Shown: positions 1 to 64,000 of the stretch, in pieces
Numbering within the stretch: position 1 is the first letter of the stretch
Layout of the letters: the number at the start of each line of letters is the position of its first letter
IMG/VR virus record: IMGVR_UViG_3300036781_000838
Location: 1 to 64,000 of that record
Reading direction: 5' to 3' (one strand)
DNA length: 64,000 bases
Source: a virus
The notes under the pieces: model-generated
What the model saw: only the letters and a program-made list of their open reading frames with translations
Told to the model about the DNA's origin: nothing
Database searches by the model: none
Translations under genes and position numbers: made by a program

Positions 1-573
1 TTATAGGAACAGAAATACCAGGACGGTGGCGGTGGTTGGTGAAAGAATTCTCACTTTCAGCATTTTGCGAATTTTTGTTTTCATGTCCCGCACAACCTGG
101 TTACTGGTCTTTAGCTTGTCAGCCACTTCCTCATTTTTCATCCCGTGCACGAATGCCATATCGAAGACAGTTCTATATTTTGGAGAAAGCTTTTTGAGTT
201 CGGTGTTGACAAAACTTAATACCTCAGATTTTACGTCGCTTCGGGTGAAGTCTTCCTCGGTGGAAGTTTCAGATCGTTGCAGGAGATCTTTATAAATGCC
301 AGCTTTCAGTTTATTGCGTTCAAGAAAATTGAGACATGCGTTGCGCGTCATTTTGCGGAGGTAGGCCGGCAGGTTTTCGATGTCCCGCAATTCTGAAGAA
401 TTTTGCCACAATTTGTAAAATACGTCTGCAATGATATCCTCAGCATCCTCGTTATTTTCCACAAACTTGTAGGCGAACCAAAACAGCGGACTATACATTT
501 CATTGTATAGCGCGGTAAACGCCTGCGGATTTCCTCGGGCAAAACCCCCTTTAATTTGTTCGGAATGCTTCAT
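1..573 (-). CDS. ECF-family RNA polymerase sigma-70 factor (Bacteroidota type)
   Basis: Region 2 'AEDIIADVFYKLW...YLRKMTRNACLNFL'; region 4 'LSPKYRTVF...GMKNEEVADKL'; short hydrophobic C-terminal tail; stop TAA at 1-3. Confidence 0.9.
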   Translation of the reverse strand: MKHSEQIKGGFARGNPQAFTALYNEMYSPLFWFAYKFVENNEDAEDIIADVFYKLWQNSSELRDIENLPAYLRKMTRNACLNFLERNKLKAGIYKDLLQRSETSTEEDFTRSDVKSEVLSFVNTELKKLSPKYRTVFDMAFVHGMKNEEVADKLKTSNQVVRDMKTKIRKMLKVRILSPTTATVLVFLFL

Positions 574-1212
574 CGGACCAGTTTCTTATCTTTTACCAAA
601 TAGTTGACACGAAGGCTGCTTTACGGTATTTGATACGCGGATAAGATTTAATTAACCCTACCAATCCTTTGCAAGGAATATATGCAAAAATTGTTCTCAG
701 CGCCCTTAACCCAATATAATTCAATCAAGCCTTGTCGAATTAATTCTATAATAACAGCCTAACTGACTGATTATTAATTACTACAAATTTATGAAATGCT
801 ACTATGACCAGTTACAATCGTTGGACTATCTCGTAGGAAGGCAGAGGATTAAGAATCTCTGAACGGGGGTTTAATGCTAATGGTAAGACAAATATATAGC
901 CTGGCGTCCATAATTTTTATAGCCATTTCATATTTTTCCCTTATTAAAGGAACTCATAATTTGAGATTCCTATAGCCCAGTTGCAATTCACTTTTTGATA
1001 AAGCAGGCTTACTCGATTTATGATCAATGGATTAGATCATGAGCGAACAGCGATTGTAAATTAAAAACCGTAGTCCTTTGATCATAAAACTTACTTGCAA
1101 AAAACTATAGATATTTTCATGTAGTCGCCAAGTTTCTCGCCTAAGCTATCTTCCAGTACATCTCCAAAAGGGAAGACCGTCATCTCAAAAGCAAAAAGAT
1201 AGCCGGCTGGAA

Positions 1213-1250
1213 TTTGGCTGGATAAACTTTCTCCAGTATATTATTTATAT
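1213..1250 (+). promoter_or_regulatory. putative phage late-type promoter (TTTG-N20-TATATTAT)
   Basis: TTTG at 1213 and TATATTAT at 1237; same architecture recurs at 3342, 10071, 23846 and 28032. Confidence 0.55.
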
Positions 1251-1285
1251 ACTCTTCCTCTCTTTAAAACCACACCCGTCTTCCT

Positions 1286-2122
1286 ATGAAGCTCGAAGCA
1301 GTCGTCGTATGTATCAACTATTCCGATTTCCTAAAAGTCACCCTTCCCAATAATAAGCAGTTTTTTGACAAACTCGTCGTCGTGACTGATGAGCAGGATA
1401 TTAATACCGTCAAGGTCTGCGAATTCTACAATGTCCAGTGTATCAAAACGAATGCTTTTTATGATGATGCGGACCGGCCTGGTAAACCCAATAAGGCCCG
1501 AGGGATCAATATAGGTCTTAAAGCGCTCTCATTGGATGGTTGGGTGGTCCAACTGGATAGTGACATCTGGCTTCCCCCTATGACCCGTAGCATTCTGGAG
1601 CGCCAGCCCTTGAGCAAGGAAAATATCTATGGCATCGACCGAATGATGTGTAACTCCTATGCCGATTTTTACGATTTCCTATATGTAAAGACAAAGCCCG
1701 TTCATGAAGGCTGGATCTACCTGCACTTGGATCTATTTCCCCTGGGACAGCGGATAACCCAATACTATGGGGAAGGGTATATGCCCATCGGGTATTTTCA
1801 ACTTTGGAACCCGAAAGGAAGCAATATCTTTTCCTATCCCGTTGTCCAGGCAGCCTTCGATCGGACAGATATATTGCACTTAAAGCAATGGAAACGGGAG
1901 AGAAGGGCTTTTATACCAGAGTTAATATGCATTCACCTTGCCAGTGAAGAGCACAAGCAAGGTCAGAATTGGGAGGGAAGAAAGACCAGATCCTTCCTGC
2001 CCTCCAAAAGATTGAGCATCTATAAAGGGATCATGGGCTGGATCCGGAAGGTTTGCTACCGAGTCACCCGCTTCCTGGCCGACTTTTTCAATGGGAAAGA
2101 AAGGTATTTCCATATTGAATAG
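1286..2122 (+). CDS. GT-A fold glycosyltransferase (family 2-like)
   Basis: N-terminal beta-strand 'EAVVVCINY', 'NKARGINIGL', DxD motif 'QLDSD', C-terminal 'FDRTD' and 'IHL'. Confidence 0.75.
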   Translation: MKLEAVVVCINYSDFLKVTLPNNKQFFDKLVVVTDEQDINTVKVCEFYNVQCIKTNAFYDDADRPGKPNKARGINIGLKALSLDGWVVQLDSDIWLPPMTRSILERQPLSKENIYGIDRMMCNSYADFYDFLYVKTKPVHEGWIYLHLDLFPLGQRITQYYGEGYMPIGYFQLWNPKGSNIFSYPVVQAAFDRTDILHLKQWKRERRAFIPELICIHLASEEHKQGQNWEGRKTRSFLPSKRLSIYKGIMGWIRKVCYRVTRFLADFFNGKERYFHIE

Positions 2123-2250
2123 TCGACCAGGATCGGACAAGATTCGTTCAGTAACCTTCCGGGCTTGTAGAATAAAAGTTCACCCGGTCCGGTCCTAAAA
2201 TAGCTCTTAAAAGCTTAAAATAGGGTAGTTTATATAAAAAATACGTCAGG

Positions 2251-2898
2251 TCAAGCTGTCGCCAAATTTCGGAACATGAAGTCTTTCATGAAACTAGGTT
2301 TGGGTATCATTTCTTCGTCGACCCACTCGAATAGCCCAATTTTTTCTTTGTAAACGACGATCTGTTGTTTGCCTCTTTTTCGTTTGGGGTTAATTTCACA
2401 CGCCTTTTTAAGTGTTGCGGTCACCCTGGACCGGAACTCCTTGCGAGCTTTTTTCTTATCAATACTTTTTTGGATCTCCGGGTTTTTCTGCAGGATTATG
2501 ATGTATAGATCGTCCGGGGATACAAAGCGATTAAGTTCACTTAAAACGCCAACAGCCAAAGGAAGCCACTTAAATTCTTTAACCTGCTGCGGGCGTGGTT
2601 GATCGAGGTTTGAAGTGGCCCGCAGTACTCTCAGGTCCTTATCACCGCGCTTATTATTTCGATAGCGAACCAGCTCCTCCAGCAGCAATTTGTTTTCACT
2701 TAGTTTAGTACTTGCAGTGTCATAGTCTGCTTTAGCTTCGATAAACAATTGCTCGGCTTCTTTGTAGGGCACCTGCTTTTCCTGTAGCAGCACAAGTCCC
2801 GCGGCAACATCTGCTTCGGCAATTTCGATAAATTTGTCAACCTGTTTTTCGGTTAAATTAAGCACGTCATAGTCTTTGGTAGTGGAGGCAACTTTCAT
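2251..2898 (-). CDS. hypothetical protein (N-terminal coiled coil, basic C-terminal domain, possibly DNA-binding)
   Basis: 215-aa ORF with heptad-like N-terminal half and K/R-rich C-terminal half. Confidence 0.6.
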   Translation of the reverse strand: MKVASTTKDYDVLNLTEKQVDKFIEIAEADVAAGLVLLQEKQVPYKEAEQLFIEAKADYDTASTKLSENKLLLEELVRYRNNKRGDKDLRVLRATSNLDQPRPQQVKEFKWLPLAVGVLSELNRFVSPDDLYIIILQKNPEIQKSIDKKKARKEFRSRVTATLKKACEINPKRKRGKQQIVVYKEKIGLFEWVDEEMIPKPSFMKDFMFRNLATA

Positions 2899-2938
2899 CG
2901 GTGGTTGTAGATTAAGGTTAATTTATTCTATTAAGCCG

Positions 2939-2970
2939 GCAATCTAAGAAAGTAGTTTTTATTCTCCAAA
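2939..2970 (-). promoter_or_regulatory. possible host-type Bacteroidota sigma70 promoter for 2251..2898
   Basis: On the minus strand TTTG-N20-TAGATTGC, close to the TTTG-N19-21-TAnnTTTG consensus. Confidence 0.35.
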
Positions 2971-3308
2971 TGCATAGTTGTTAATTTTTTTGGCTCTGGG
3001 GATGAGCTATATACAAAAAAATATATGCGTAGCGGCTATCATGATATTCAAGCATTGTGATTAATTATTATATAGCCCATCTGGTATGAATAGTTGACGA
3101 TTTAATGACCGCGATCATCGCACAGAATCGCGTAATGTGTTGTTCCGATTGTATATTGCGACCCTGCCGATATAGGTATTAATGCTTATGAGGTGAAGAA
3201 AAAAAGTATTTTTCACTAAGGGGATACCAACAAAATATTAGATTACGCGCTTTTTAAATTGAGCGTCCATACAGAACAGGTATTATAAATATTTGTAAAA
3301 AATATTAT

Positions 3309-3379
3309 AATAAATTTGTAGAATTTAGAGAATACAATAAATTTGTAGAGTTTAGGTTAATAATGTATCTTATTATTGT
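3309..3379 (+). promoter_or_regulatory. chained promoters within a tandem repeat at the head of the structural operon
   Basis: AATAAATTTGTAGAnTTTAG occurs twice; TTTG(3315)-N19-TAAATTTG(3338) is a consensus Bacteroidota promoter, and its TTTG(3342)-N20-TATCTTAT(3366) forms a second, variant promoter. Confidence 0.6.
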
Positions 3380-3418
3380 AGAACAACATTGAGAAAACAA
3401 ACGCTAAATCCCAATCTA

Positions 3419-3736
3419 ATGAATACTACTGCCCAGCATGCAGAAGTTCAGGAGAAACCAATTGAATTAACCCCCGAACAGATTAAAGAGGCCCGTGAAC
3501 AACGATCACGCTGGTACAAGGACCAGGTCAGTTTTCTGAAGCCGCAACTAGAGTACCAGCGGCTCGTCTCCGAAATTGAAGTATGCAAAGCCACTACCGC
3601 AGAAGCCCAGTTAAAGCAAGCGCAGATATACCTTGCTATCAAAGGCGGCCAACCTTCACCAGATGGTAGGCAAGTGAAGCGACATCAATCCAGGCAGGGA
3701 GCGAAACAAAAGGCAGATATGCCAACCTCCCGGTAA
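3419..3736 (+). CDS. hypothetical phage protein (coiled coil)
   Basis: ORF 3389..3736; first ATG at 3419 lies downstream of the promoter. Confidence 0.65.
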   Translation: MNTTAQHAEVQEKPIELTPEQIKEAREQRSRWYKDQVSFLKPQLEYQRLVSEIEVCKATTAEAQLKQAQIYLAIKGGQPSPDGRQVKRHQSRQGAKQKADMPTSR

Positions 3737-3814
3737 GAAATCATTTGAAAGTATCGTTTTAAATATAATCCGAGAGGATTCAAGCAATCGCGCTCTTAAC
3801 CATAAACCAAAACC

Positions 3815-3934
3815 ATGTTCCGGAACCAGACCAATTCCCCCTATATCCCGGGAATTCTGCAAGTTACTCCTGCGAGATATTTTATCACCCCAGGCCGATT
3901 CTTAAAAATTGAACATCCCCCGGGTGGGGCCTGA
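3815..3934 (+). CDS. possible 39-aa small ORF (MFRNQTNSPYIPGILQVTPARYFITPGRFLKIEHPPGGA)
   Basis: ATG preceded by an A/C-rich leader 'cataaaccaaaacc'; below the ORF-track size cutoff. Confidence 0.25.
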   Translation: MFRNQTNSPYIPGILQVTPARYFITPGRFLKIEHPPGGA

Positions 3935-4142
3935 GTGGTAGTTTATCATTTTGTCTGATAACGCCAACTCGGTCTACCCGAAAAGGACACAAAGTATCCA
4001 ATTTATTTTCCTTCCTTCCAGGAAGATGCAATTTCAGTCATTACTGGACGGCCTAAAATAGCCGGACCAGGTTGAACTGTAATGTCAGACTCTTATAAGC
4101 ATGTCTTTTTCTGAGGGAATAAATTGTTGTGAAGGTAACCCA

Positions 4143-4514
4143 ATGGCACAAGTTCACGTAGTAGAAAAAAAATCCAGGCTGAGTAGATCTGATACTATTA
4201 AGTATCAAATTATTACCCATTGCTTTATCAACAAAATAAGCGTAAGCAACGCCGACATCGATATAGTGGCATACCTGGCCACAATAGGACCGGTAGAGCT
4301 AAACACGTTTTGCATAAAAGCACATGAACAATCGATTTTTGGTTCTGCCCAAACTGCCAGGAATTCTATCAATCGGGCTGCCAAGCATGACCTTATCACA
4401 AAGACCGGGGGAAATAAAAAAATGATCCGTGTTAACCCTGGTCTTCAAATCCAAAGTACCGGAAACATATTGCTGGCGTATAAATTTTTATCCGTTGAAC
4501 CCTACGAAAGCTAA
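4143..4514 (+). CDS. hypothetical phage protein, possible winged HTH
   Basis: 'SAQTARNSINRAAKHDLITK' resembles a wHTH recognition helix and wing; second ATG chosen as start. Confidence 0.6.
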   Translation: MAQVHVVEKKSRLSRSDTIKYQIITHCFINKISVSNADIDIVAYLATIGPVELNTFCIKAHEQSIFGSAQTARNSINRAAKHDLITKTGGNKKMIRVNPGLQIQSTGNILLAYKFLSVEPYES

Positions 4515-4887
4515 ACACTTATTACCGGCTATTGCTGTACGAAACCGGGTAGATATCAATTTATTGGAGCATTTGAACAATTTTTATTGGGACAGGATAA
4601 GAGACACGCTGGCAACCACTGCTGAATCAACAGTAAGGGTATTAAACCTGGGAGAGTTCGAGCGAAAGCATTGGTGCATCGATGGCCGATGCCGTAAAGC
4701 AAAGGCCATTTATGAGAAAATAAAGAACTCTGGAAGGACAGCTGACAAAGATCAACTACTGATGGATATAAAATTGTTGGAAGCTATGAAGGAATTTCGG
4801 GAAGCGGAGGCTAACCGTAAAGCAGAGAAAATATATATCCGACATGAATATAATCAGGCTTTGGAAAAACCGGAATCAAATTATTGA
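4495..4887 (+). CDS. IHF/HU-like DNA-binding protein
   Basis: Helix-helix followed by 'TVRVLNLGEF' (HU-like V.I.xLGxF); probable TTG start overlapping the previous gene. Confidence 0.55.
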   Translation: MNPTKAKHLLPAIAVRNRVDINLLEHLNNFYWDRIRDTLATTAESTVRVLNLGEFERKHWCIDGRCRKAKAIYEKIKNSGRTADKDQLLMDIKLLEAMKEFREAEANRKAEKIYIRHEYNQALEKPESNY

Positions 4888-5173
4888 AGGAGTAAAAAAT
4901 TCTATATTTAAAAAAGAAGACGTAGAGGAGATTGCGAAGGAGCGTGGAGTAATATGTAGTTCTAACAAATGTGCATCTTATGATGTAACCGGGGTTGGAT
5001 GCATGGTCCCTGGCACACAGCCATGCTGTAGCGTGCTGACCGGTGGATGTGGGTGTAGTTTAAAGTTTAAGCTGAGGTCATTATCAAGTTTTTGCCCAAA
5101 AGGATATTGGGACATCGTTTTAAACGAGGACGAAGAACAACAGCTAAAAGAAAAACTTGGGATAAATGATTAG
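4844..5173 (+). CDS. small Cys-rich putative Zn-binding phage protein
   Basis: 'CSSNKC...CC...GCGCSL..K.RSLSSFCPKGYW'. Confidence 0.65.
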   Translation: MNIIRLWKNRNQIIEGVKNSIFKKEDVEEIAKERGVICSSNKCASYDVTGVGCMVPGTQPCCSVLTGGCGCSLKFKLRSLSSFCPKGYWDIVLNEDEEQQLKEKLGIND

Positions 5174-5501
5174 AACGGAGCAGGATGACGTAGAGCTAAT
5201 GCTTATTCATCCAGTCTATAAAACCAAAACGTTTCATAGAACAACTAATGATGGCACCTTAGAGAAATATGATAAGCAAGTTATCATCAGGGAACTATGC
5301 GTTCACCGGTGGTTTAAAAGAGAGGCCATCATAGGGGTACAGGAGTATATTACCTCCAAAAATACCATTGCCAAAAACAGGTGCCTGGTCCTCGATAAAT
5401 ACAGTAACCAATTTTTTGCCGTCTTTCACTCTGTCCAGGAAGTTAGGGACGCCATAAAAATAAAACCCAAAAATAAAATCGGATTCAACATATGTCAGTA
5501 A
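5166..5501 (+). CDS. hypothetical phage protein
   Basis: 111-aa ORF overlapping both neighbours. Confidence 0.6.
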   Translation: MIRTEQDDVELMLIHPVYKTKTFHRTTNDGTLEKYDKQVIIRELCVHRWFKREAIIGVQEYITSKNTIAKNRCLVLDKYSNQFFAVFHSVQEVRDAIKIKPKNKIGFNICQ

Positions 5502-6328
5502 AGTTTAAAACTGAAAATCATACCTATGAAAGCGTTGGGGGAGAAAATATTGATTGGGTATCTGTAACTACCTTTATCAATAATTTTAAAGAAGAATTCA
5601 AGGCCCGAGAAATTGCACTTAGGACATCTACCCGAAAGAAATCAAAATGGTTTGGGCTACCAGTAGACGACATCTTAGCCGCCTGGAGCAATGAAGCGAA
5701 AAGGTCCACGGATCTGGGGACCTGGTTCCACAACCGAAAGGAAGTTGATCTGACAAGCAGAACCACCATCGAACGAAACGGATCTACTTTAAGGGTCGTC
5801 AAACCCATTGTCGAGGATGGTATTAAATATGCACCCATTCAGAAACTTACCGATGCTGTGTACCCGGAGCATTTTGTATATCTTAAGTCTGCCGGCGTAT
5901 GCGGTCAGTCCGATGTAGTAGAGGTAATGAAAGGGCAGGTCAATATCATTGATTACAAAACCAATAAGGAAATCAAACTGGAAGGGTACCGTTCCTGGGA
6001 TGGAACCACCAAAAAGCTAAAGCGACCACTTTCTCACCTGGATGACTGCAACTTTGTTCATTATACCCTCCAGCTTTCCATGTACCTGTTTATTATCCTA
6101 AAGCACAACCCCCATCTCAAACCAGGGACGCTTACCCTGCACCATATTATATTTGAAGAAGAAGGTCGGGATAAGTTTGACAATCCCATCTACAAACTGG
6201 ATGAACAAGGAGATTTCATCGTAAAAGAAGTCATCACTTATGATCTCCCCTACCTAAAGCAGGAATGCATCACCCTGGTCAACTGGATTAAGGAAAACCG
6301 GCAAGAGATCCGGCTGAAGGCCGCGTAA
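5492..6328 (+). CDS. PD-(D/E)XK nuclease (Cas4/RecB-like exonuclease)
   Basis: 'GTWFH', 'GQSDVV...IIDYKT', 'YTLQLSMY'. Confidence 0.88.
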   Translation: MSVKFKTENHTYESVGGENIDWVSVTTFINNFKEEFKAREIALRTSTRKKSKWFGLPVDDILAAWSNEAKRSTDLGTWFHNRKEVDLTSRTTIERNGSTLRVVKPIVEDGIKYAPIQKLTDAVYPEHFVYLKSAGVCGQSDVVEVMKGQVNIIDYKTNKEIKLEGYRSWDGTTKKLKRPLSHLDDCNFVHYTLQLSMYLFIILKHNPHLKPGTLTLHHIIFEEEGRDKFDNPIYKLDEQGDFIVKEVITYDLPYLKQECITLVNWIKENRQEIRLKAA

Positions 6329-6361
6329 AATTTTTTGCGGTCATTTACTAACAAAATTAGT

Positions 6362-6877
6362 ATGGTACGTTTATTCGACATTCTCAACGGGCAGGTAATC
6401 CCCTCGGAGCACTGTTATACGCTAAAGTCGTTAAAGGACATTATGGAAAATCACCAGGAGGACTATCTAACGATCTACCTGTACCTGTTCTATATGACCT
6501 GCCCAAACCCCGACTTGAACCCATTTTTTGATGTGCCTGAAAATGATAAGGAAGAATTGATCACCCAGGAAATAGGTGCATCTTTCTCCCTGGACGATGA
6601 GTACATTTTAAACGGCAAAAATCTTTGTGAAAAGCTCTACCAAACCCCTACTTATAGGGCATATGTAGGAATCAAATCAATGCTCGACAAACTTGCCCGG
6701 TATATGGAAAATACTCCCATAGAACACGGCAGGGATGGCAACCTCACCGGGCTGATCAATGCTGCCGCAAAATTTGAGCAAATCCGGCAATCATACAAAG
6801 GCGCCTTTAAAGAGCTGGAAGAAGAGCAAAAATCCACGGTTCGGGGAGGAAAGAACCTGGCCTACGACGATGTGTAA
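6362..6877 (+). CDS. phage protein immediately upstream of TerL; terminase small subunit candidate
   Basis: Helical protein ending 3 nt before terL, with C-terminal 'VRGG' tail; functional call is positional only. Confidence 0.45.
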   Translation: MVRLFDILNGQVIPSEHCYTLKSLKDIMENHQEDYLTIYLYLFYMTCPNPDLNPFFDVPENDKEELITQEIGASFSLDDEYILNGKNLCEKLYQTPTYRAYVGIKSMLDKLARYMENTPIEHGRDGNLTGLINAAAKFEQIRQSYKGAFKELEEEQKSTVRGGKNLAYDDV

Positions 6878-9160: not shown

Positions 9161-9553
9161 TTAATTTTGGTTCGAGGGATTGGCTGGAAAAAAGCGAATT
9201 ACTTCCCGTAAAGTCTTTGTTTCCTCGGCATCGCAAAAAACGACCAAATCCTTTACCTGTTTTAGGGAAAAGTGGCAGTTTGCGAAACCCATCTGGTCTC
9301 TCTTGTTAAATCCGATGATCACTGATTTTCCATACACGACTTGTCCTGTTGTGCTAAGCATGAAGGCTAAATAGTCGGTATTTTTATCAGCATCCTCCAT
9401 GGTATACATCGTGTCCCCATTTTCAAATTCTTCCTCGTGCGAAAAAGGTCCACCAAGCGCTTTTTCCATGGGACTTCCTGAAAAATCATAAGTTAATTCA
9501 AAATGAACGTACTTAATTGTCTTGCCTGCAGGGTCAATAAGAATAGCTTTCAT
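9161..9553 (-). CDS. hypothetical protein, paralogue A (DUF3846-like, uncertain)
   Basis: 130 aa; aligns by eye over its full length with 9643..10035. Confidence 0.7.
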   Translation of the reverse strand: MKAILIDPAGKTIKYVHFELTYDFSGSPMEKALGGPFSHEEEFENGDTMYTMEDADKNTDYLAFMLSTTGQVVYGKSVIIGFNKRDQMGFANCHFSLKQVKDLVVFCDAEETKTLREVIRFFPANPSNQN

Positions 9554-9642: not shown

Positions 9643-10035
9643 TCATGATAATCGGGCAGATTGTCTTCTTTCTATTGCACGAAGCGTTGCTGTTTCTTCC
9701 GAAGTACAAAAGACAACGTCGTCAATTACGAATTCTAACAAGGACCTACAGTCAATAAGTTCTCTATCCGCTTTTATAGGTAAGGGAAAGCCAACGATGA
9801 CAGCCTTGCCAAACACATCTTCTCCCGTCGAAGAAATTCGGAAGGCTAAATAATTTTCGTTTTCCTCCGTGTCAGCCGCAGCATATAAATTATCTCCGTT
9901 TTTGAGGTCTAACACCCAATCGGAAGAAAACCCTAAAATAGTTGAGGTAGTATGAACCGCATTATTGCATTCCGGCTCATATTTAATCTCTTTAATAGTT
10001 TGTGTCACTGGATCGATTACAATTGCTTTTAACAT
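9643..10035 (-). CDS. hypothetical protein, paralogue B (DUF3846-like, uncertain)
   Basis: 130 aa; shared motifs KAI.IDP, NGD..Y, YLAF..S.TG..V.GK.VI.GF, VVFC..EET.TLR. Confidence 0.7.
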   Translation of the reverse strand: MLKAIVIDPVTQTIKEIKYEPECNNAVHTTSTILGFSSDWVLDLKNGDNLYAAADTEENENYLAFRISSTGEDVFGKAVIVGFPLPIKADRELIDCRSLLEFVIDDVVFCTSEETATLRAIERRQSARLS

Positions 10036-17956: not shown

Positions 17957-18184
17957 TTATTTAAAGTTAAGCAAAGTAAACTCATCTATTTCCAGCGCTT
18001 TACACACCTTTCTCAAAGTCAAAAAGGTGGCGTTTGTTTTACCTTTTTCTATCCTATTCATACTGGGACGTTTCATACCACACTTTTCCCCCAGTTTAAC
18101 CTGGGTAAGTCCCTTACTCTTACGTAAAGTTGTTATCCGTTTACCTAATTTTTTAAGAAACAACTGGTCAGATTTGGTCTTCAT
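17957..18184 (-). CDS. XRE-family helix-turn-helix regulator
   Basis: 'LGKRITTLRKSKGLTQVKLGEKCGMKRPSMNRIEKGKTN'; ATG at 18184 preferred over GTG at 18199. Confidence 0.88.
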   Translation of the reverse strand: MKTKSDQLFLKKLGKRITTLRKSKGLTQVKLGEKCGMKRPSMNRIEKGKTNATFLTLRKVCKALEIDEFTLLNFK

Positions 18185-18220
18185 AAGGGTAAATTGCACT
18201 AAAAATGCCTCATAGAGGTA

Positions 18221-18335: not shown

Positions 18336-18776
18336 TTAATGGTGGTAGGTTTGAATAATGAATATTACTATTCCTGCAAGGAAGGCAAGAGCACTTATCC
18401 AAATAGCGATACTCGCTCGTTTTAATGATTGCTTTGCTGCCTGTAATGATTGCTCCGACAGGTCGTTGGCAAGTTTGGACATGCGGATAGGCTCTTCTCG
18501 CAGGTACGTTTCATGGGTATATCCACCGTTCATAATGAACTTGGCTCCTTCCGGAGTGAGCGAAATATACCAGGCAGCAATACCATGATCTCCAAAAGCA
18601 CCGGATGTATGACGTACCTTAATATACCCGGTCTGTTCTAAATACCGGATAAGGTCCATAGTCACTTGATCTTCGTTGGGGAGGGATTTGAAGAAGTCCG
18701 GACCCGCGATCTCCGTATTAATGCCCCAATCATTATTAAGTTGTCGAAGTATTTCATCCAGTAGTGCATTGGTCAT
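18336..18776 (-). CDS. membrane-anchored hypothetical protein (wHTH-like N-terminus, C-terminal TM helix)
   Basis: 'LIRYLEQTGYI...ISLTPEGAKF' and TM segment 'IAIWISALAFLAGIVIFII'. Confidence 0.7.
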   Translation of the reverse strand: MTNALLDEILRQLNNDWGINTEIAGPDFFKSLPNEDQVTMDLIRYLEQTGYIKVRHTSGAFGDHGIAAWYISLTPEGAKFIMNGGYTHETYLREEPIRMSKLANDLSEQSLQAAKQSLKRASIAIWISALAFLAGIVIFIIQTYHH

Positions 18777-56198: not shown

Positions 56199-59100
56199 AT
56201 GAATTGCACAACGCTCCCCCACAAAGAATCAAGTTTAAACGCCCGGGAATCACTTTTAAGCAAAAAAGCTATTGATGAAGATGGCCGGATTATATCAGAA
56301 GAGAGATTTCACGACACCGTTGATGAGATAACGACCCAGGCCAGGAAATCCTACCAGGTCGACCGGGGACCTCTTTTTGCCCGCGTTGAAGTTACTCCTT
56401 CATTTGGTGGCAAATATTTCAAAGCAGAACCGAATGAACTTGCTTTTAATGATATTGACGAAGCCCGTAAAAAATTGGCAATCTATGATTCGCAGGAATC
56501 TATTGGATCATTTCGGCAGCCCAGTTCCCGGGACAAAGAAGTGGTTAGTATTGAAGATAAGGTCAACCATTTTCTTTCTTCTATAGGTGTATCCGTTGAA
56601 AAAGTGGATCAATTAACGGATGCAGCAGGAAATAAGCTCGATGCTGTTGCTAAGGCAAGTATGCTAAATAAGATCATCCAGGTTGTTGACGGTAAGGCAG
56701 ATATGACCACCCTGCCGGAAGAAGCAGCTCACTTTTTTGTATCGCTACTAGGGGAGGAAAATGCCTTGTACAAGGCTATGTTCAAAGATATCCCGACGTA
56801 TAGACTTTACAGTGGTGTAGTTCAGCAATATAAAGGTAATAAGTTGTATCGGCGCAGTGATGGTACCCTCAATTTTGATATGATAAAAAAGGAGGCTATT
56901 GGTAAACTGATAGCTGAACATATTCTTGTACAAGGGGTCGGCGACGAATACACAGAATCGATAGCAAAGGCCCAAAAATGGTGGGAGAAAGTGTGGGACT
57001 ATATTACTAAGATATTTGCTCAAAGTAAGGTTAACCCCTTTCAGGAGTCGGCGAAAAGAATCCTGGCAAATCAAGTTCAGGGCCTCAAGAATATCCATGA
57101 GCTGGACTCCACCGATGAGTTTTTACAGGTTGACAATGTTTACAGTCGAATTAAAGCAGACCAACAGCGCATACACCTTGATAATTCTGTAGATCCCCGA
57201 ACAGGAGAGAAACGTCATCAATATACCGTAGATGGCAAAAATGTCAGGGGTTCAGTTACCGAACTGTTGGTAGATAAATGGTATAAAGCCAGGTTCCCTA
57301 CAGACAACAGAACTGAGCGCCAAAAGAACATCGATAGTCTGAAGGCGCAGGAAGGAGATAAGGTCCACGCTGATGCCCAAAATATCATTGAACGCTACAT
57401 CGATGCGAACACCGGTGAACTGCTCACGGTGCCCAGGCCAGTATCCACCATATCAACCAACCAGAGTATTTACACCAAGCTGGAGTCTTATATCGGGGAG
57501 CTTTTAAGGTCTTATCCGGCTGCAACCAAATTTATGGCTGAGGTCCGGATCCATGATGCGAAACGGAATATGCCCGGGAGCATCGATTTGCTGGTGTTAA
57601 CACCAGATGGTGCTGCTGATATTTACGACTGGAAATCACAAGAGGTAGCAAAGGACCAGACTGATTTAAAATGGTTCAAAGAGCCTGCTTACCGGATACA
57701 GTTAGAGGCATACCGTAAAATCCTTACCCAAGAGTATGGTATAACCAGGTTCAACAAGGTCCGGGCGATCCCTATAAAGACAAATTTTATCTACAAAAAA
57801 GAACAGGGCACTTACACTCCCAAAACACTCGCTGATATCGAGGTAGGATCGATCTACCCCGGGCAAATCCCGGAGGATAAGGCATATCTACTACCTGTGG
57901 TCGCCCAGGATGAAAAGACGGGAGATGATAAATTGGATAAATTGATTACCCAGCTAAATACAGTCCTTGAAAAAATATCTCAGCAGCATTTTGACCGGGA
58001 TAAGCGCTATCTGAAGGCGGAGGAACTGAATAAAATCAGGAAGGCGATCCGCGATCTCCAGGTGCGGCAGGATATAGGGACTTTCGTAGAAAACGGCTTG
58101 GCTGAGGTAATGAAATACCAGGACAAGCTGGATAATGATACCGTTACCAAAAGTGATGTGCTTGATTCTATTGATATTCTTTCCGTTTATGCGCAGGCGC
58201 AGTTGCTTTTACGAGAACAACTCAAGAACCTTCGGAAGAAAATTGGTGCCGAAACAGATCCGGTGGCCAAAGGCGAGTTGGAGACACTACAGTCGGATTT
58301 CTTAAAAATGAGCGCCAATAGCAAGGATGTGCTATTTAATATGGAGGAAAAACTGAAAGAAATCGGGGTTCAGATTGCTGAAAAAGAAGGAATATCCAAC
58401 CTGCTGACGGCGGAAAAGAGCATGGACCGGATGAAAACCTTGTTCAGGTCTATTTCTACCCTTCCGACACGCTCTATCCAGACCTTTTATAAACTATTGT
58501 CTACCTCCCAGTCTAAACGAGATTTTCAAATTGACGACCTGAATGAGAAATTGCATCATATAAAGGAGAATGTTGAGAAATGGTCGGCAAGCAAGGGGAT
58601 TAGCAGGGAAAATATGTTTGACGATATTTTGAAAATTAATGCTGATGGTAACTGGACCGGTGACTTCCTGGATAAATTCTCCAAAGATTATTTTGTCACC
58701 AAGAATGAAGCCATTAAAACGGGGGATATCAAGTGGATTTCCGATAACACCACTTTTGACAGGGAACGGTATGAAAAGGACCTGGCCAGTTATAAAGCAG
58801 TGATTGAAACGGTAGCTTATAGCCCCGATCCAGTAAAAAATAAAGAGCGCCAGGATAAGGCGCTGGCTGCGTGGATCAACGCACGGGATGTGGATACATC
58901 CGACTTTGCCAAGCTGAATAAGAAAAACTATTATCTGAAGCCAAAGGAGCAATGGTACAGCAATAAATGGAGCAACCTGCTCAAGGAGGAAAACAAACCC
59001 CTGAAAGAAGCCTTTGACTACTTTCAGTTGCTTAAATCTTTCTCAGATAAGTTGGGGATGATAGATTTTGAAAATGGCTTCATCCCATCAATTCGCCAGG

Positions 59101-60980
59101 ATAAACTGGAGCTGGCTGTATTCGCCGGGCTGAGTAACCTATTTAATAAAAAAGGACTATTTGAGACTTTGAAGGTCGATGCTGACAAAGCCTTTGGAGA
59201 GATCGATCCTATTACCGGGGAATTAGTAAAGAAGATTCCGGTCAATTTCTTGCATGATTTGGGCGTAAAGAAAGCAGATGGTACCATTGACTACTCGCTT
59301 AAATCCAAGGACTTATTCAAGGTTTTCAGTATATGGGGCAATCATATGTATAACTATGAAGCGATGCAGTCCATTAAAGACTCCGCTGAAATTCTCGTTG
59401 CCGTCGAAAGGTCTAAAAAAAGCCTGGTAACCAATGTGTTTGGCAATGTCACCGAGGAGCGCAAAGAAAAAGAGGGCAACCAAACCAATGCGGAGGTCCT
59501 GGAGAATTTTGTCAAATACTATGTCTATGGACAAAAAATTGGCGATAATGCTGATTATGCTATTAAGATAGGGGGTAAGGAATATTCCGCTACAAAAACG
59601 GGTAGAGCAGTGCTCAGCTTCTTATCCCTCAAAACACTGGCGCTAAACGTGCTCTCAGGGACCTCAACATTCGTTGGTGGATCCGGTAACGCCTTTTTCC
59701 AGGCATCTAAGAGAGAACACTTTACTGAAGGGGATTGGGCCAGGGGATTGAGAGATTTTACGAGTCGAGATCCAAAGGCTATGGCAGCTTTAGACTATTT
59801 TGATGTAAACCTGGAGGATGAGAAACAGCACCATTCCAACCAGCTTTCCATCAATGACGCCGTTAAGCATGTCACTTTGGATAAACTGTTTTTTATACAA
59901 AAGAATGGTGATAAAGCGGTACAATACCCAGTGGCGCTTACTATGATGCGTACTCATATGGTCGAAGGTGGTAAAATAGTTGATATCAACGCTTTCGTGA
60001 AAAATAAATATGATTACGAGAATTCCTTTTACTCCCTGCCGACGTCTGAACGAAAAGCGCTACAATCCAAAATAGATACGGAGGTAAAGGAGTTAAAAGC
60101 TACCAGATCGTTGCAAGCCACTGCCGAGGTAAAGGATAAGAAACTGATCATTCCAGGCATTGACCGGAAAAGCCAGGAAGTGTATGACTTCAGAAATAAG
60201 ATCAAAAAGGTCAACAAAAATATTATTGGTAACGCCTCCCATGACGATATCAACCAGATCCGAATTGGGATTTTGGGGCAAGTCTTGATGCAGTTCCGGT
60301 CCTGGATGCCCCAGATGGTCACGGATCGGTTCGGGGATATGTCCTACGATATGGACCTTGAATCATATCAGTACGGCAAAGGGCGTCTTTTCTTGAAGCA
60401 CCTGTTCAGTAGTAAGATATTTCCGCTCATAGGAGAAATGGTTACTGGCTTTGGCGCCAATACTATTACCCGGGCTAAACAGCGGTATGTGGAATTTAAA
60501 GGTCGAATGGCTGCGCAGGGTGAGGAATTCCATATGACAGAGGCCCAGTTTATAGATATGTACCTGGGTAATCTCAGGTCTCAGCTCAGAGAGATGGCGG
60601 TGTTATCGTCCTTCTTAGCGGTCGCATTCTGGGCGAAACCCGGCTCAAGCGACCGGGATAAGTCAGGGATGAGGAAGTTCATCGCCAGGGCCATGGATAA
60701 ATATCAGAACGAATTTAGCTTCTATTATTCGCCTTCAGAGTTCACACAAATGCTAAAAAACCCCATCCCCTTAGTGGGGCTATTGACCGATTTTGAGAAA
60801 TTCGGGACCCAGACTATTGGGCAAATCTATGGATTTGCGCTACAGGATGACGTCATCATGGAAAAAAATCACCCTTTCAAGTACTTGGGTAAAATAATGC
60901 CTATCACCAAAGAGGCAATCAGTACCTATGGACTTTTTGATGACGATTTTCGGAAAAGTTGGGGCTTGCAGAATAGGTAA
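56199..60980 (+). CDS. large virion cargo protein with degenerate zincin-like and PD-(D/E)XK nuclease domains
   Basis: 'TLPEEAAHF...KEAIGK'; 'GDKVH...EVRI...GSIDLL...IYDWKS...QLEAY'; C-terminal 'MQFRSW' and a hydrophobic segment. Confidence 0.75.
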   Translation: MNCTTLPHKESSLNARESLLSKKAIDEDGRIISEERFHDTVDEITTQARKSYQVDRGPLFARVEVTPSFGGKYFKAEPNELAFNDIDEARKKLAIYDSQESIGSFRQPSSRDKEVVSIEDKVNHFLSSIGVSVEKVDQLTDAAGNKLDAVAKASMLNKIIQVVDGKADMTTLPEEAAHFFVSLLGEENALYKAMFKDIPTYRLYSGVVQQYKGNKLYRRSDGTLNFDMIKKEAIGKLIAEHILVQGVGDEYTESIAKAQKWWEKVWDYITKIFAQSKVNPFQESAKRILANQVQGLKNIHELDSTDEFLQVDNVYSRIKADQQRIHLDNSVDPRTGEKRHQYTVDGKNVRGSVTELLVDKWYKARFPTDNRTERQKNIDSLKAQEGDKVHADAQNIIERYIDANTGELLTVPRPVSTISTNQSIYTKLESYIGELLRSYPAATKFMAEVRIHDAKRNMPGSIDLLVLTPDGAADIYDWKSQEVAKDQTDLKWFKEPAYRIQLEAYRKILTQEYGITRFNKVRAIPIKTNFIYKKEQGTYTPKTLADIEVGSIYPGQIPEDKAYLLPVVAQDEKTGDDKLDKLITQLNTVLEKISQQHFDRDKRYLKAEELNKIRKAIRDLQVRQDIGTFVENGLAEVMKYQDKLDNDTVTKSDVLDSIDILSVYAQAQLLLREQLKNLRKKIGAETDPVAKGELETLQSDFLKMSANSKDVLFNMEEKLKEIGVQIAEKEGISNLLTAEKSMDRMKTLFRSISTLPTRSIQTFYKLLSTSQSKRDFQIDDLNEKLHHIKENVEKWSASKGISRENMFDDILKINADGNWTGDFLDKFSKDYFVTKNEAIKTGDIKWISDNTTFDRERYEKDLASYKAVIETVAYSPDPVKNKERQDKALAAWINARDVDTSDFAKLNKKNYYLKPKEQWYSNKWSNLLKEENKPLKEAFDYFQLLKSFSDKLGMIDFENGFIPSIRQDKLELAVFAGLSNLFNKKGLFETLKVDADKAFGEIDPITGELVKKIPVNFLHDLGVKKADGTIDYSLKSKDLFKVFSIWGNHMYNYEAMQSIKDSAEILVAVERSKKSLVTNVFGNVTEERKEKEGNQTNAEVLENFVKYYVYGQKIGDNADYAIKIGGKEYSATKTGRAVLSFLSLKTLALNVLSGTSTFVGGSGNAFFQASKREHFTEGDWARGLRDFTSRDPKAMAALDYFDVNLEDEKQHHSNQLSINDAVKHVTLDKLFFIQKNGDKAVQYPVALTMMRTHMVEGGKIVDINAFVKNKYDYENSFYSLPTSERKALQSKIDTEVKELKATRSLQATAEVKDKKLIIPGIDRKSQEVYDFRNKIKKVNKNIIGNASHDDINQIRIGILGQVLMQFRSWMPQMVTDRFGDMSYDMDLESYQYGKGRLFLKHLFSSKIFPLIGEMVTGFGANTITRAKQRYVEFKGRMAAQGEEFHMTEAQFIDMYLGNLRSQLREMAVLSSFLAVAFWAKPGSSDRDKSGMRKFIARAMDKYQNEFSFYYSPSEFTQMLKNPIPLVGLLTDFEKFGTQTIGQIYGFALQDDVIMEKNHPFKYLGKIMPITKEAISTYGLFDDDFRKSWGLQNR

Positions 60981-61090
60981 AATCGGTTAAGAGGGAATAC
61001 GAGCTGGCTTATAAAAAAATAAATTACCTTTAAAGATCGACTCGGCACCTGATCAATATAATGGCGAAGAACATTATATAAATTATTAAC

Positions 61091-62053
61091 ATGCGAATAA
61101 CGGGAATTCAACTAAAGAACTTCAAACGATTTACAGATTTGACTATTGGTGCAATCCCTGAAAAAACTAAACTAGTTTTATTGATCGGGGCAAATGGTTC
61201 TGGGAAGTCCTCTATATTTGATGCGTTCGACAACATTACGAAGAGCTGTGTTGGTACCCTCGCTGATAATAGCGAGTATTATTCAAAAAACAATCAAGAA
61301 TATTCGATTGCAATTTCATTTGATGATGGCAGCACTCTCCGAACTGACTATATAGATAAAGAATGCGCGAAGAAAATAGAAAACTTTATAGGAAGAAGTA
61401 GCATCAGAATTGTTCCAAAAATTACTGATGCGGGTGATCTAGACACGATAAAATATGATTCAGACGCTCCGGCTACCTTTAGCGACGCTGACACTCGATT
61501 TGATAACGATCTCTTAATGTTCATACAACAGATAGATAACGCCTTACGAGCGCCTGTCTTTTCTGGAGAATCAGCTGATACTTTTAAAATTTTTACGGAA
61601 TTCATTCGCCCCTTGAACGTTTCGCTGCTTAATATTTTTGGGAACAACCTTTTGACCACTATTCAATTGATCGAATTCCGAAGTCCTACCATCCAATCGA
61701 AGGCTAAACTAATTTTTCTAAAAGGGGAATCCAAAATAAATTATGACCTTTTAAGTTATGGGGAAAAGCAGGTTATCATATTATTACTGAATTTTATAGT
61801 TCGTAAAGAACAGTATCAGGATGCAGTAATTTATATTGATGATATGGATTGTAATATAAATACTGTATTGCAATTCAGATTGTTCAATGAAATAATCAGC
61901 AGTTGGATCCCTGACACCTCCCAGCTATGGACAGCTTCACATGCTTCTGGTTTTATTGAGTTTGCCCTCCAGGAGGACGACGCTGTTATACTAGACCTGG
62001 GTCTTTTGAACTTTGACGAGTCACAGATAATTCTTCCAAGACCAAAATTCTGA
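61091..62053 (+). CDS. ABC/AAA-type ATPase (OLD/AbiEii-like N-terminal domain), possibly truncated
   Basis: 'LKNFKRF', Walker A GANGSGKS, signature LSYGEKQ, Walker B YIDDMD, H-loop TASH. Confidence 0.8.
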   Translation: MRITGIQLKNFKRFTDLTIGAIPEKTKLVLLIGANGSGKSSIFDAFDNITKSCVGTLADNSEYYSKNNQEYSIAISFDDGSTLRTDYIDKECAKKIENFIGRSSIRIVPKITDAGDLDTIKYDSDAPATFSDADTRFDNDLLMFIQQIDNALRAPVFSGESADTFKIFTEFIRPLNVSLLNIFGNNLLTTIQLIEFRSPTIQSKAKLIFLKGESKINYDLLSYGEKQVIILLLNFIVRKEQYQDAVIYIDDMDCNINTVLQFRLFNEIISSWIPDTSQLWTASHASGFIEFALQEDDAVILDLGLLNFDESQIILPRPKF

Positions 62054-62103: not shown

Positions 62104-62712
62104 CTAATAATATTTAGCCAATTCCATGCATTCTTTTTCCGCCCAACACATCCGGATGGGCACATATTCCTTCCATCTTTTTTTTAAAAGTCGCATTTGT
62201 TTAAGGTTATGATCATCGATTAGATCCCATATATCAAACCAGACAGCATCAAAGTTGGGGGTTGGGACACAAGAAAAAGCGTCTCCTTGAAATACCTGAA
62301 CTTTTGATGACAAATTTTGATAATAACTGCCGCTGAGCTGAATAACTTCCGAGGCTATTTCAACCACGGTAATATGCTCTACTTCCCTTTTATCAATCAA
62401 CGCTTGTACAATCATACCCAATCCCAGCCCAAAAATCAGAACACGCCCGTGTGCTTTTTCTATGAAAGGCATGTGGTCAATTATTTCTGCCGGTGTATTG
62501 CTCATAACCGGGTAGCCACTTGGATAACCTTTTCTCAAATATTCCTTTTTGTGACAAAGGAGGTATTTATATTCACCTGGTACAATATATCGTTCTAAAC
62601 CACCCATTTGGTTTAGATTATGCTGGGCGGCCCCTTCTATTGTTACGACAAATGTTTTTATCTCCCAGTCTCCGATTCTGCCGTCCGGCACAGCGATGTT
62701 TATCTGTTTCAT
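62104..62712 (-). CDS. class I SAM-dependent methyltransferase (spermidine synthase-like)
   Basis: 'VMSNTPAE', 'VLIFGLGLG', 'TVVEI', 'GDAF', 'FDAVWFDIW'. Confidence 0.8.
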   Translation of the reverse strand: MKQINIAVPDGRIGDWEIKTFVVTIEGAAQHNLNQMGGLERYIVPGEYKYLLCHKKEYLRKGYPSGYPVMSNTPAEIIDHMPFIEKAHGRVLIFGLGLGMIVQALIDKREVEHITVVEIASEVIQLSGSYYQNLSSKVQVFQGDAFSCVPTPNFDAVWFDIWDLIDDHNLKQMRLLKKRWKEYVPIRMCWAEKECMELAKYY

Positions 62713-62739
62713 AATGGTGTTTTTGAGCTAAATGGGTCA

Positions 62740-62770
62740 CTAATTTAAGGTATTAGTTTACTCAAACAAA
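62740..62770 (-). promoter_or_regulatory. host-type Bacteroidota promoter for the methyltransferase
   Basis: On the minus strand TTTG-N19-TAAATTAG. Confidence 0.45.
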
Positions 62771-62875
62771 TATTCTGAACCAACCGGATAAATAATTGGA
62801 TAAAATCGAGCGTTAGGTGGATAGAAAGGCCAATTGAGTCTCCTGAAGATATATGAAGTGGAGATCAAAGCGAAG

Positions 62876-62911
62876 AAAAAAAGGAAAGGAAGCCTGGACT
62901 CCCTTTCCTTT
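62876..62911 (-). terminator. intrinsic terminator downstream of the ligase
   Basis: AAAGGAAAGGAAG...CTCCCTTTCCTTT stem preceded by an A-run, which is the U-tract on the minus strand. Confidence 0.7.
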
Positions 62912-62938
62912 CTACTAATAATATACAAAGCAATAATC

Positions 62939-64000
62939 TTATTCTTTGTCTCTTAAAGCTTTACCAGTCGGCAAATTTGGGATATCATATTTAGTATATC
63001 CAAAATGCTTTACGGTCAGAAGTCTGCCCTCTGTTTTCCCGGCCTGTATCTCTTCGTAAATCTTCTGTTTACTTTCACGACTGCCGGACATCTTTACATC
63101 GAAACTCCCTCCAGGGCACTGGCAAGTGAATATTAAATCTTCCACCCCGCGCTGACCCAGCTTGTATCCGGTGATCTCAAATTCAGTATCATCGAATTCT
63201 TTGACCTTGCGCCAGTAGCTGCTGCGTTGTCCCTGTTGGTAAAGTCCATTGGGGTCTTTGAGCATAGCTCCTTCATATCCGAACTGAACCCATATATCAT
63301 GGTGTCGCTTTACGTCGGCATCACTGTTAACTACAACGCCGTCCACGGCCGAGACGAAATTGCTATCGATCAGGCTGACAATTCTGGCAGTTTCTGCACT
63401 CCGCTCGGTCTGGCTACCTGTGTGTAAAGGCAGATCATACATCCTGAATTCCAGTGTCACGGTCTCAGCCCTCAGTTTTTTGACAGCTTCATTGATTTCT
63501 TCCAATGTCATGCCGTGGCGATAGATCTCTCCATCGAGAACTATCGGATACTGGTCTATTGTCCACCTACTTGCCCTCAATGCTGCCAAGACCTCCAGCT
63601 TAATATGGAATAATGATGTATATTCTTTGCCCGAGCTAGATAAAAACTGCATGTTACCCCAATCCTCGGGGATGACCAGAGTGGCTCTCACCCCATCGAA
63701 CTTGGTTTCAAGTCGTTGTGGATAGGAAATCTTTTGACCCAATTTCCAAGGTACCGTTGGCGCCTTCATCGGCTTAACATTGCCACTGGCGTCACTGTTG
63801 AATTTGGGTACGGCTTCCTCCAGCACCTTTTCCAAGGATCGTACCGTTTTACCATCGTTTACGGTTATGTAGCCTAATCCGACCGATTTAATTCCTAAGC
63901 CAGCAAGATCCTTATACCCTTCATCACGCTTTTTATTCCAATCGGATCGCGCCTGCAGTTCGGCTTGTTGGTAGGAGGTAGTTTCGTTTGCTTTACCGAT
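62939..64000 (-). CDS. ATP-dependent DNA ligase (5' partial; frame open to the window edge)
   Basis: Motif I 'ETKFDGVR', 'LDGEIY', 'GYEGAMLK', 'KVK', OB domain; manual translation upstream of 63835 has no stop and reads 'IGKANETTSYQQAELQARSDWNKKRDEGY'. Confidence 0.92.
   Translation of the reverse strand: MGKANETTSYQQAELQARSDWNKKRDEGYKDLAGLGIKSVGLGYITVNDGKTVRSLEKVLEEAVPKFNSDASGNVKPMKAPTVPWKLGQKISYPQRLETKFDGVRATLVIPEDWGNMQFLSSSGKEYTSLFHIKLEVLAALRASRWTIDQYPIVLDGEIYRHGMTLEEINEAVKKLRAETVTLEFRMYDLPLHTGSQTERSAETARIVSLIDSNFVSAVDGVVVNSDADVKRHHDIWVQFGYEGAMLKDPNGLYQQGQRSSYWRKVKEFDDTEFEITGYKLGQRGVEDLIFTCQCPGGSFDVKMSGSRESKQKIYEEIQAGKTEGRLLTVKHFGYTKYDIPNLPTGKALRDKE

Follow-up and report, generated by a model that had tools for sequence, protein, structure and literature searches.

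crAss-like phages are usually regarded as non-integrating. In the Bacteroidota, SusC/SusD loci under the control of an extracytoplasmic function (ECF) sigma factor and its anti-sigma factor are known as trans-envelope signalling polysaccharide utilization loci. Both subjects meet in the stretch of DNA analysed here, 64,000 nt of the IMG/VR record IMGVR_UViG_3300036781_000838 (hereinafter the window), which corresponds to the minus strand of positions 298579 to 362578 of a 373,651-bp contig (C20). The window is very probably the middle part of a 138,686-bp temperate crAss-like phage that was inserted by a tyrosine integrase in a tRNA-Leu(CAG) gene of a Puia-like bacterium of the family Chitinophagaceae, and that contains approximately 18 kb of bacterial-type cargo.

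The prototypic crAssphage, Carjivirus communis, has been described as a phage-plasmid with neither integration nor integration genes (PMC10983915). Chromosomal crAss-like sequences are known, but they were reported as "incomplete"; a search for integrases failed, and lysogeny was proposed from repressor and anti-repressor genes (PMC11054128). Yutin et al. only speculated on crAss-like prophages (PMC7886860). In a mouse virome catalogue of 2026, integrase annotations were enriched in Intestiviridae and Zeta genomes (PMC13503771). Our literature search found no other chromosomal crAss-like sequences, no paper joining Crassvirales with Chitinophagaceae, and no report of a phage-borne SusC/SusD system.

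Contig C20 and a second contig, C50, belong to a genome of 6.17 Mb in 51 contigs, in which the G+C content (GC) of the host contigs was ~0.52. On C20, GC fell from ~0.54 to ~0.41 at position 267,365 and remained low up to the contig end. The terminal 141 bp of C20 was the exact reverse complement of the terminal 141 bp of C50, where low GC extended from the shared end back to position 387,891, and a 101-aa open reading frame (ORF) spanned the overlap with its frame open. After joining of the two contigs, the low-GC block comprised 138,686 bp. To the left of the window, low GC continued for a further 11 kb on C20 and then for 32 kb on C50.

The element was bounded by two tRNA-Leu(CAG) genes, which represent the attachment sites attL, 31 kb past the right end of the window, and attR, ~44 kb past its left end (Table 1). 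In the joined sequence, the two copies were direct repeats with 87% identity overall, and they shared an identical stretch of 47 nt, consisting of one upstream base and the tRNA 5' end through the anticodon stem. The integrase gene was located next to attL, to the right of the replication genes. The original prediction had proposed a chromosomally integrated crAss-like prophage, had stated that no integrase or att repeat was visible in the window, and had recommended a search for both beyond the replication module; the search was successful, both features lying outside the window with host DNA on both sides of the element. The element contained no further tyrosine recombinase, and neither a serine recombinase nor a third att copy was found in it. 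The presence of two tandem elements at one tRNA was considered and rejected, as there were only two att copies and one recombinase. The small ORFs beside the integrase had no match with Pfam or PADLOC, and no repressor could be named.

The host genes upstream of attL were dapD and a gene for an EamA transporter. In several genus relatives, tRNA-Leu was also located after dapD, with the EamA gene in between in some of them only. The dapD-side tRNA-Leu of one relative (G001) was 96% identical to attR and 86% to attL, and that of another (G007) was 93% and 84% identical, respectively. Further, the C50 copy was identical to the tRNA of G001 in the variable arm and to that of G007 in the T arm, and each tRNA-Leu copy of the element had its own terminator hairpin. 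From these comparisons, attL evidently consists of a host 5' part and a phage-supplied 3' part with the phage terminator, and attR of a phage-side 5' part followed by the host's original 3' part and terminator. A hybrid attL, in which the target tRNA was rebuilt with a phage-derived part, together with a host-type 3' part at attR is the pattern expected of integration. Recombination would have occurred inside the 47-nt core, and the likely crossover point would be the anticodon loop, by analogy with other tRNA integrases. In G001, G005 and G007, which represent different species, no phage was found after the dapD-linked tRNA-Leu.

The attL tRNA-Leu had a single mismatch in the acceptor stem (A6-C67, read from the sequence), whereas attR paired perfectly. 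The genus relative G005 carried G6-C67 in its tRNA-Leu, a hint that the phage-supplied part came from a different host species. A gene for a PIN-domain protein and, upstream of it, an 83-aa ORF (C50:386642-387303) lay directly beyond attR, in DNA of intermediate GC that was non-syntenic with the relatives. These two are likely a toxin-antitoxin pair, and the flank of the tRNA-Leu gene may repeatedly be a target of integration.

The host can be assigned to the Chitinophagaceae as a Puia-like bacterium. The nearest named DapD homologues were those of Puia sp. and of Chitinophagaceae metagenome-assembled genomes (MAGs), and the relatives of the cargo proteins and an integrase relative found in Segetibacter agree with this assignment.

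Over 85% of its length, the terminase large subunit (TerL) was ~26% identical to Crassvirales TerL proteins, such as those of cr55_1 and cr1_1. A search of 50,697 phage records with the portal protein yielded 126 matches, of which all the named ones, except for Leptolyngbya phage Lbo-JY46, were crAss-like, including phages of Bacteroides, Cellulophaga, Flavobacterium, and Azobacteroides and uncultured "cr" genomes. A profile made from the major capsid protein (MCP) and its relatives matched gp32 of crAss001 (7qof, E 6e-12). The 4522-aa homologue of the giant virion RNA polymerase had a single DxDxD motif (residue 3733) within the stretch matched by 6vr4, and is a putative virion-packaged two-barrel RNA polymerase of the phi14:2 gp66 type. 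The virion block (TerL, portal, MCP, ring, tail, and RNA polymerase) was opposed to the replication block, which is the crAss-type layout (ORF map, Pfam, and PHROG), and the local gene order was that annotated in the epsilon crAss-like genome OR575929. PolA of the replication block carried a 3'-5' exonuclease, and PD-(D/E)XK nucleases were also present in the block. All large phage ORFs of the element were intact, and the crAss-like virion module that the original prediction had described as intact was indeed present with TerL, portal, MCP, large virion proteins, and the uninterrupted 4522-aa ORF. Judged by TerL, portal, and the HK97-fold MCP, the element can be classed as crAss-like in the extended sense around Crassvirales. 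Because it showed 21-26% identity to Crassvirales members and matched Lbo-JY46 better, a sister lineage is suggested rather than membership in a named Crassvirales family.

A 320-aa ATPase encoded where the virion block meets the replication block (61091-62053, +) matched ATPase models of the anti-phage systems AriA, PtuA, AbiL, and Old (E 1e-8 to 1e-13), and may be a defence function carried by the prophage.

In IMG/VR, 68 contigs encoded an MCP with 57-62% identity to that of the element; 10 of them were near-complete (107-128 kb) and two had terminal repeats. Five complete free relatives had sizes of 120-128 kb. The largest relative, G033 (IMGVR_UViG_3300046779_002065; 128,275 bp with a 127-bp terminal repeat), showed 55% identity in TerL, 57% in the portal, and 46% in the large virion proteins encoded at 30255-37573. 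Its virion module and some of its replication module were syntenic with those of the element, and synteny stopped at ~4100 of the window. A tyrosine recombinase was detected with the Pfam model PF00589 in four of the 10 near-complete relatives. A protein-level search of these genomes with the element's own integrase had found none, and the view that the relatives lack integrases was overturned by the Pfam search. All four integrase-bearing relatives had a tRNA 3' fragment at a distance of 25-160 nt from the start of the integrase gene; that of G033 and G031 was an identical 3' part of tRNA-Met(CAT), from the anticodon loop to the acceptor end. These fragments look like attP sites. The integrase of G033, the only one compared, had the same genomic position as that of the element, with homologous next genes, and was 17% identical to it. 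Integrase-attP cassettes appear to be recurrent and exchangeable in the clade. As integrases of their own, each with a tRNA-fragment attP, occur in four free relatives, integration appears to recur as a strategy in an environmental branch of the crAss-like group, and crAss-like lysogeny thereby becomes open to direct tests. IMG/VR pattern scans with the integrase and with a 688-aa protein encoded on C50 revealed no close relatives. In addition, G033 contained three tRNA genes (Gln, Met, and Thr) and a tmRNA-like gene with a 24-residue tag among its virion-module genes (G033:120245-122290).

The ECF sigma factor gene at the left end of the window was the first gene of an operon that runs leftward past the window. 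The further genes of this operon, on C20:362803-373277, encoded the anti-sigma factor FecR (PF04773/PF16344), a 1103-aa SusC-like protein with STN, Plug, and barrel domains (PF07660+PF07715+PF00593), SusD (PF07980/PF14322), a thioredoxin-domain protein, and an S9 peptidase. The cargo continued across the contig join with AhpC/TSA and MauE, which were followed by AraC, GNAT, and Crp-type proteins, a second ECF sigma factor, and an XRE protein. A bacterial-type cargo block of ~18 kb, opened by the ECF sigma factor, thus evidently sits inside the prophage. With regions 2 and 4 in the ECF sigma factor, an adjoining FecR, a SusC with STN, Plug, and barrel, and an adjoining SusD, it corresponds to a sigma/anti-sigma SusC/SusD locus; it is not a polysaccharide utilization locus in the strict sense, since no glycoside hydrolase was found among the linked genes with Pfam.

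The original prediction had recognized an ECF sigma gene beside an AT-rich gap of ~700 nt, and Pfam matches and the measured gap (Table 1) bear this out. The FecR/SusC partner that it recommended looking for was also found, together with SusD, downstream of the sigma gene and within the prophage. As to the origin of the gene, the fallback of a phage-encoded sigma factor came closer than that of a host-type one, although the gene is neither host flank nor a lone phage sigma factor, being the first gene of a cargo block.

The GC of the cargo was 0.38, compared with 0.41-0.44 in the rest of the element, and in the DNA to the left of the ECF gene it dropped to 0.31-0.40 with no rise to the host level. 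tblastn searches of the host genome yielded 34 ECF, 26 FecR, and 90 SusC-like hits, the best of which were no more than 46% identical; recent capture of the cargo from the genome of its own host was rejected on this ground. The cargo SusC was at most 53% identical to anything in a set of 5.8 billion proteins, and its nearest named homologues were chromosomally encoded in Puia, Niastella, and other Chitinophagaceae.

Several further observations were made on these genes. A perfect 126-nt inverted repeat around a 228-nt spacer was located at the 5' end of the cargo S9 peptidase gene (C20:370423-370902). The spacer encodes the apparent signal peptide of the peptidase, and its inversion would place stop codons in frame; the repeat could be an invertible ON/OFF switch, or it could be an assembly hairpin. 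The second ECF-type sigma factor (216 aa; C50:415044-415694, -) had no FecR partner and was encoded beside Crp-like and XRE-type regulators, and it could serve the phage transcription programme rather than the cargo. Elsewhere in the host genome, contig C13 (99 kb, GC 0.48) encoded an S9 peptidase 37% identical to that of the cargo, an AhpC-like gene, and an ECF sigma factor, and contig C30 (92 kb, GC 0.49) contained tyrosine recombinase matches. Both contigs may be further islands or mobile elements.

Past the cargo, C50 contained 26 kb of phage-style accessory genes (Table 1). The 10-mer TATTCTACAA, a phage regulatory box, occurred in 29 copies genome-wide, 23 of which were in the element. 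Five were located in the C50 part, where ~0.2 would be expected from base composition; they lay upstream of genes, in the same close pairs and orientation as in the replication module. Because of this excess, the whole 138.7 kb is read as one element, and, in turn, the gap at 574-1285 is read as a control region from which the cargo operon and the phage-side genes diverge, and not as a prophage junction. No repeat pairing this gap with the other edge of the cargo was found. The tRNA synthetase, Tpt1/KptA (RNA 2'-phosphotransferase), the SLOG protein (cpYpsA), tRNA-Met, and the aberrant tRNA together look like a toolkit for RNA repair and translation (L004:5326-6426, -; L005:7375-8142, -; L005:19554-19629).

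An alternative explanation is a composite island, in which a phage of ~91-120 kb resides at tRNA-Leu and the ECF/SusC/SusD block, perhaps with all 47 kb of accessory DNA, is a later bacterial insertion; the prophage would then be oversized or defective, and the block would occur in no packaged genome. The low GC of the cargo, the resemblance of its SusC to ordinary Chitinophagaceae SusC, the assembly break inside the cargo, and the size of the element compared with the 120-128 kb of its relatives would be in line with such an origin, as would the five complete relatives, in which no sigma-70 region 2 or Plug domain was found. A composite is nevertheless unlikely, since the element lacks a third att copy, a second recombinase, and flanking repeats, its large phage ORFs are all intact, and the C50 part past the cargo holds both the phrog_33734 protein and five TATTCTACAA boxes paired as in the replication module.

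Some findings weigh against a single temperate phage with cargo. A true empty site was not recovered, the DNA past the tRNA in G001, G005, and G007 being non-syntenic with the C50 flank. The ~47 kb made up of window positions 1-4100, the cargo, and the C50 part had no homologue in G033, and because the five complete relatives yielded no Tpt1, sigma-70 region 2, Plug domain, or C50 688-aa protein, this accessory part is tied to the clade by the regulatory box only. Of 20 proteins of the C50 part that were scanned, only one matched a phage-only family (phrog_33734), and a few of the rest fell into wider families, such as sigma factor, methyltransferase, and radical SAM. A pattern scan of the IMG/VR contigs revealed nothing close to the cargo SusC, and the cargo had no flanking repeats or mobility gene that would account for its acquisition. 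At 10 kb more than the largest relative, the element might be too long for the capsid. Excision, copy number, and the join of C20 to C50 are judged from assemblies alone.

It is highly improbable that assembly or binning misjoined a free crAss-like genome to host contigs at a tRNA-like sequence. The link between C20 and C50 consists of a 141-bp overlap only, which is typical of a de Bruijn graph k-mer, and the genome resembles a metagenome bin. Integrated relatives are also nearly absent: the MCP was found in one other of 400 family genomes, at 30% identity, and in a set of 185,579 species genomes it was confined to three MAG contigs (11-45 kb), one with the label Chitinophagaceae. A chimera would, however, have to account for two independent junctions, one on a contig with 267 kb of host DNA and the other on one with 388 kb, with a junction identity of 47 nt that is far under the k-mer size, and for a hybrid attL tRNA and a host-type 3' part at attR, as integration predicts. 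Moreover, exact-sequence look-ups gave 1,584,455 bp as the length of the longest contig for host DapD, the integrase, MCP, and the ECF sigma factor, and likewise for FecR, SusD, AhpC, the C50 688-aa protein, and Tpt1. Where its source could be tied (SusD and Tpt1 calls with different starts), it was JGI/IMG, and the NCBI versions of the looked-up proteins sit on C20 or C50. These figures, compared by length alone, presumably denote the same contig of a second assembly, and a contig common to host and phage proteins counts against a chimera and supports the join of C20 and C50.

The left junction placed by the original prediction at 574-1200 or 2900-3300, with the ECF sigma gene as host DNA, deserves practically no credence: the gene and its neighbours are of bacterial type with many host paralogues, but the paralogues are distant, low GC goes on to the left, phage-type DNA (TATTCTACAA box, tRNAs, and the phrog_33734 protein) resumes past the cargo, and the positions of attL and attR, the latter 44 kb further on, together with the continuity of low GC refute it.

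Table 1. Features of the element. Positions refer to the window unless a contig (C20 or C50) is named.
Feature	Position	Strand	Support or remark
ECF sigma factor, 190 aa, first gene of cargo operon	1-573	-	Sigma70_r2 (PF04542, E 1e-12), Sigma70_r4_2 (PF08281), Sigma70_ECF
Divergent intergenic region, 712 nt, GC 0.36	574-1285		between leftward cargo operon and rightward phage-side genes
Lineage-specific ORF, 278 aa	1286-2122	+	no Pfam match at curated cut-off, no PADLOC family, no G033 homologue
TATTCTACAA box	2165-2174		between the ORFs at 1286-2122 and 2251-2898
Lineage-specific ORF, 215 aa	2251-2898	-	no Pfam match at curated cut-off, no PADLOC family, no G033 homologue
Small genes upstream of TerL	4101-6877	+	5 of 6 ORFs with G033 homologue, 26-61% identity (tblastn)
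Terminase large subunit (TerL)	6881-9130	+	phrog_6681, E 2e-54
Two paralogous 130-aa ORFs between TerL and portal	9161-9553, 9643-10035	-	40% identical to each other; no family match (Pfam, PADLOC)
Portal	10451-13183	+	phrog_6547, E 4e-84; PDB 7qog (crAss001 gp20), E 4e-25
Major capsid protein (MCP)	14575-16200	+	phrog_11589
XRE-family helix-turn-helix regulator	17957-18199	-	PF01381, E 9e-12
146-aa protein, hydrophobic C-terminus	18336-18776	-	no family match
65-aa ORF	20376-20573	-	no family match
Large virion proteins: 1586-aa structural protein; 852-aa protein with C-terminal phage lysozyme domain	30255-37573	+	phrog_37948, phrog_15100, PF00959
Giant virion RNA polymerase homologue, 4522 aa, uninterrupted	42621-56189	+	PDB 6vr4 (phi14:2 gp66), E 2e-23, query residues 3460-3760
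1593-aa protein with PD-(D/E)XK nuclease domain; 320-aa ABC/AAA-type ATPase	56199-62053	+	Pfam, PADLOC
Start of replication block: methyltransferase; ATP-dependent DNA ligase running off the window	62104-64000	-	phrog_15480, phrog_114
Rest of replication block, right of window: PolA, DnaB-like helicase, DnaG-like primase, uracil-DNA glycosylase (UDG), SNF2 helicase	C20:267445-296025		Pfam
Tyrosine integrase, 427 aa	C20, start 80 nt after attL tRNA		PF00589, E 5e-18, residues 220-411
tRNA-Leu(CAG), attL	C20:267280-267364		ARAGORN
tRNA-Leu(CAG), attR	C50:387805-387889		ARAGORN
Accessory genes: phrog_33734 protein, class I Trp/Tyr-type tRNA synthetase, radical SAM enzyme, methyltransferase-like protein, Tpt1/KptA, SLOG protein, tRNA-Met, aberrant tRNA	C50		

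The opposite-strand genes of the virion module, including the XRE regulator, that had been noticed in the original prediction are real ORFs (Table 1). The gap between TerL and portal in G033 was 459 bp, and that between the ring protein gene and the next gene was 456 bp; because these gaps are so short at the same places, the two larger inserts are considered lineage-specific. The four insert ORFs of at least 80 aa had no counterpart in the syntenic G033, and the 65-aa ORF was below the ORF cut-off and outside this comparison. Except for the XRE regulator, the five insert ORFs had no match with Pfam or PADLOC. All three inserts may be lineage-specific morons.

For the cargo, the following mode of action can be proposed. 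Transcription of the operon would start in the 712-nt gap and lead away from the virion genes, controlled by a sigma/anti-sigma circuit of its own: binding of a substrate by the SusC STN transducer would send a signal through FecR and release the ECF sigma factor. The cargo operon could then be on in the lysogen while the lytic genes are silent, and it would represent lysogenic conversion, providing the lysogen with an extra outer-membrane uptake system. Because thioredoxin-fold proteins, AhpC, and an S9 peptidase are encoded but no glycoside hydrolase, a peptide or redox-related compound would be a likelier substrate than a glycan.

We tentatively extend this proposal to the clade, as a possibility that somewhat less than half convinces us: a temperate crAss-like lineage of soil and freshwater Chitinophagaceae would swap integrase-attP(tRNA) cassettes at a fixed position, and the present member would package a self-regulated ECF/FecR/SusC/SusD locus as conversion cargo, expressed independently of the lytic programme. 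With integrase, attL, attR, and target tRNA, a classical lysogeny module is fully resolved in a crAss-like genome that appears to be intact. If true, a phage-borne sigma/anti-sigma SusC/SusD system would extend lysogenic conversion in the Bacteroidota to outer-membrane nutrient import. SusC-like proteins are surface-exposed, and a phage-borne copy could in principle affect phage adsorption.

Compared with cultured Crassvirales (crAss001 and phi14:2), the element has homologous portal (7qog), MCP (7qof, by profile), TerL (~26%), and giant virion RNA polymerase (6vr4), and the same order of portal, structural protein, MCP, unknown protein, and ring-like protein. Opposed replication and virion blocks, and PolA, primase, helicase, UDG, and SNF2, are also shared. 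In contrast to these isolates, to which identities were only 21-26%, the element is 139 kb instead of ~100 kb in size, has a tyrosine integrase with tRNA att sites, and was found integrated, and its host is an environmental member of the Chitinophagaceae and not one of the gut Bacteroidales or marine Flavobacteriia. Among the cultured phages of the collection, the closest was Leptolyngbya phage Lbo-JY46 (PP438436.1, 125 kb), which gave the best match for the portal (31%) and MCP (28%, 99% coverage) and shared the local gene order. The record of this cyanobacterial phage lists hypothetical proteins only, and no paper on the phage was found.

The IMG/VR clade of uncultivated phages of 120-128 kb shares with the element 57-62% identity in MCP, 57% in the portal, and 55% in TerL, a syntenic virion module, and a partly syntenic replication module. 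A tyrosine recombinase and a tRNA 3' fragment were likewise present in four of 10, and in G033, the single genome examined for this, the recombinase gene occupied the position that it has in the element. These relatives are, however, free genomes, their putative attP comprises only the tRNA 3' part (tRNA-Met in G031 and G033) whereas the element has a full-length tRNA-Leu look-alike, and the five complete members had no match to sigma-70 region 2 or the TonB Plug of SusC.

The cargo locus resembles the ECF/anti-sigma SusC/SusD loci of Bacteroidota in its order of ECF sigma factor, FecR, SusC with an N-terminal STN, and SusD. Unlike those loci, it is located inside a phage genome, is at most 53% identical to sampled homologues, and has thioredoxin-fold proteins, AhpC, MauE, and an S9 peptidase with no adjoining glycoside hydrolase. 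With regard to persistence, Carjivirus communis is reportedly maintained in its host extrachromosomally and without lysis (PMC10983915), whereas the present element was integrated by site-specific recombination. Finally, the chromosomal crAss-like sequences described previously had no reported att sites (PMC11054128), whereas in the present element the integrase, attL, attR, and target tRNA are resolved and the phage genes are intact.

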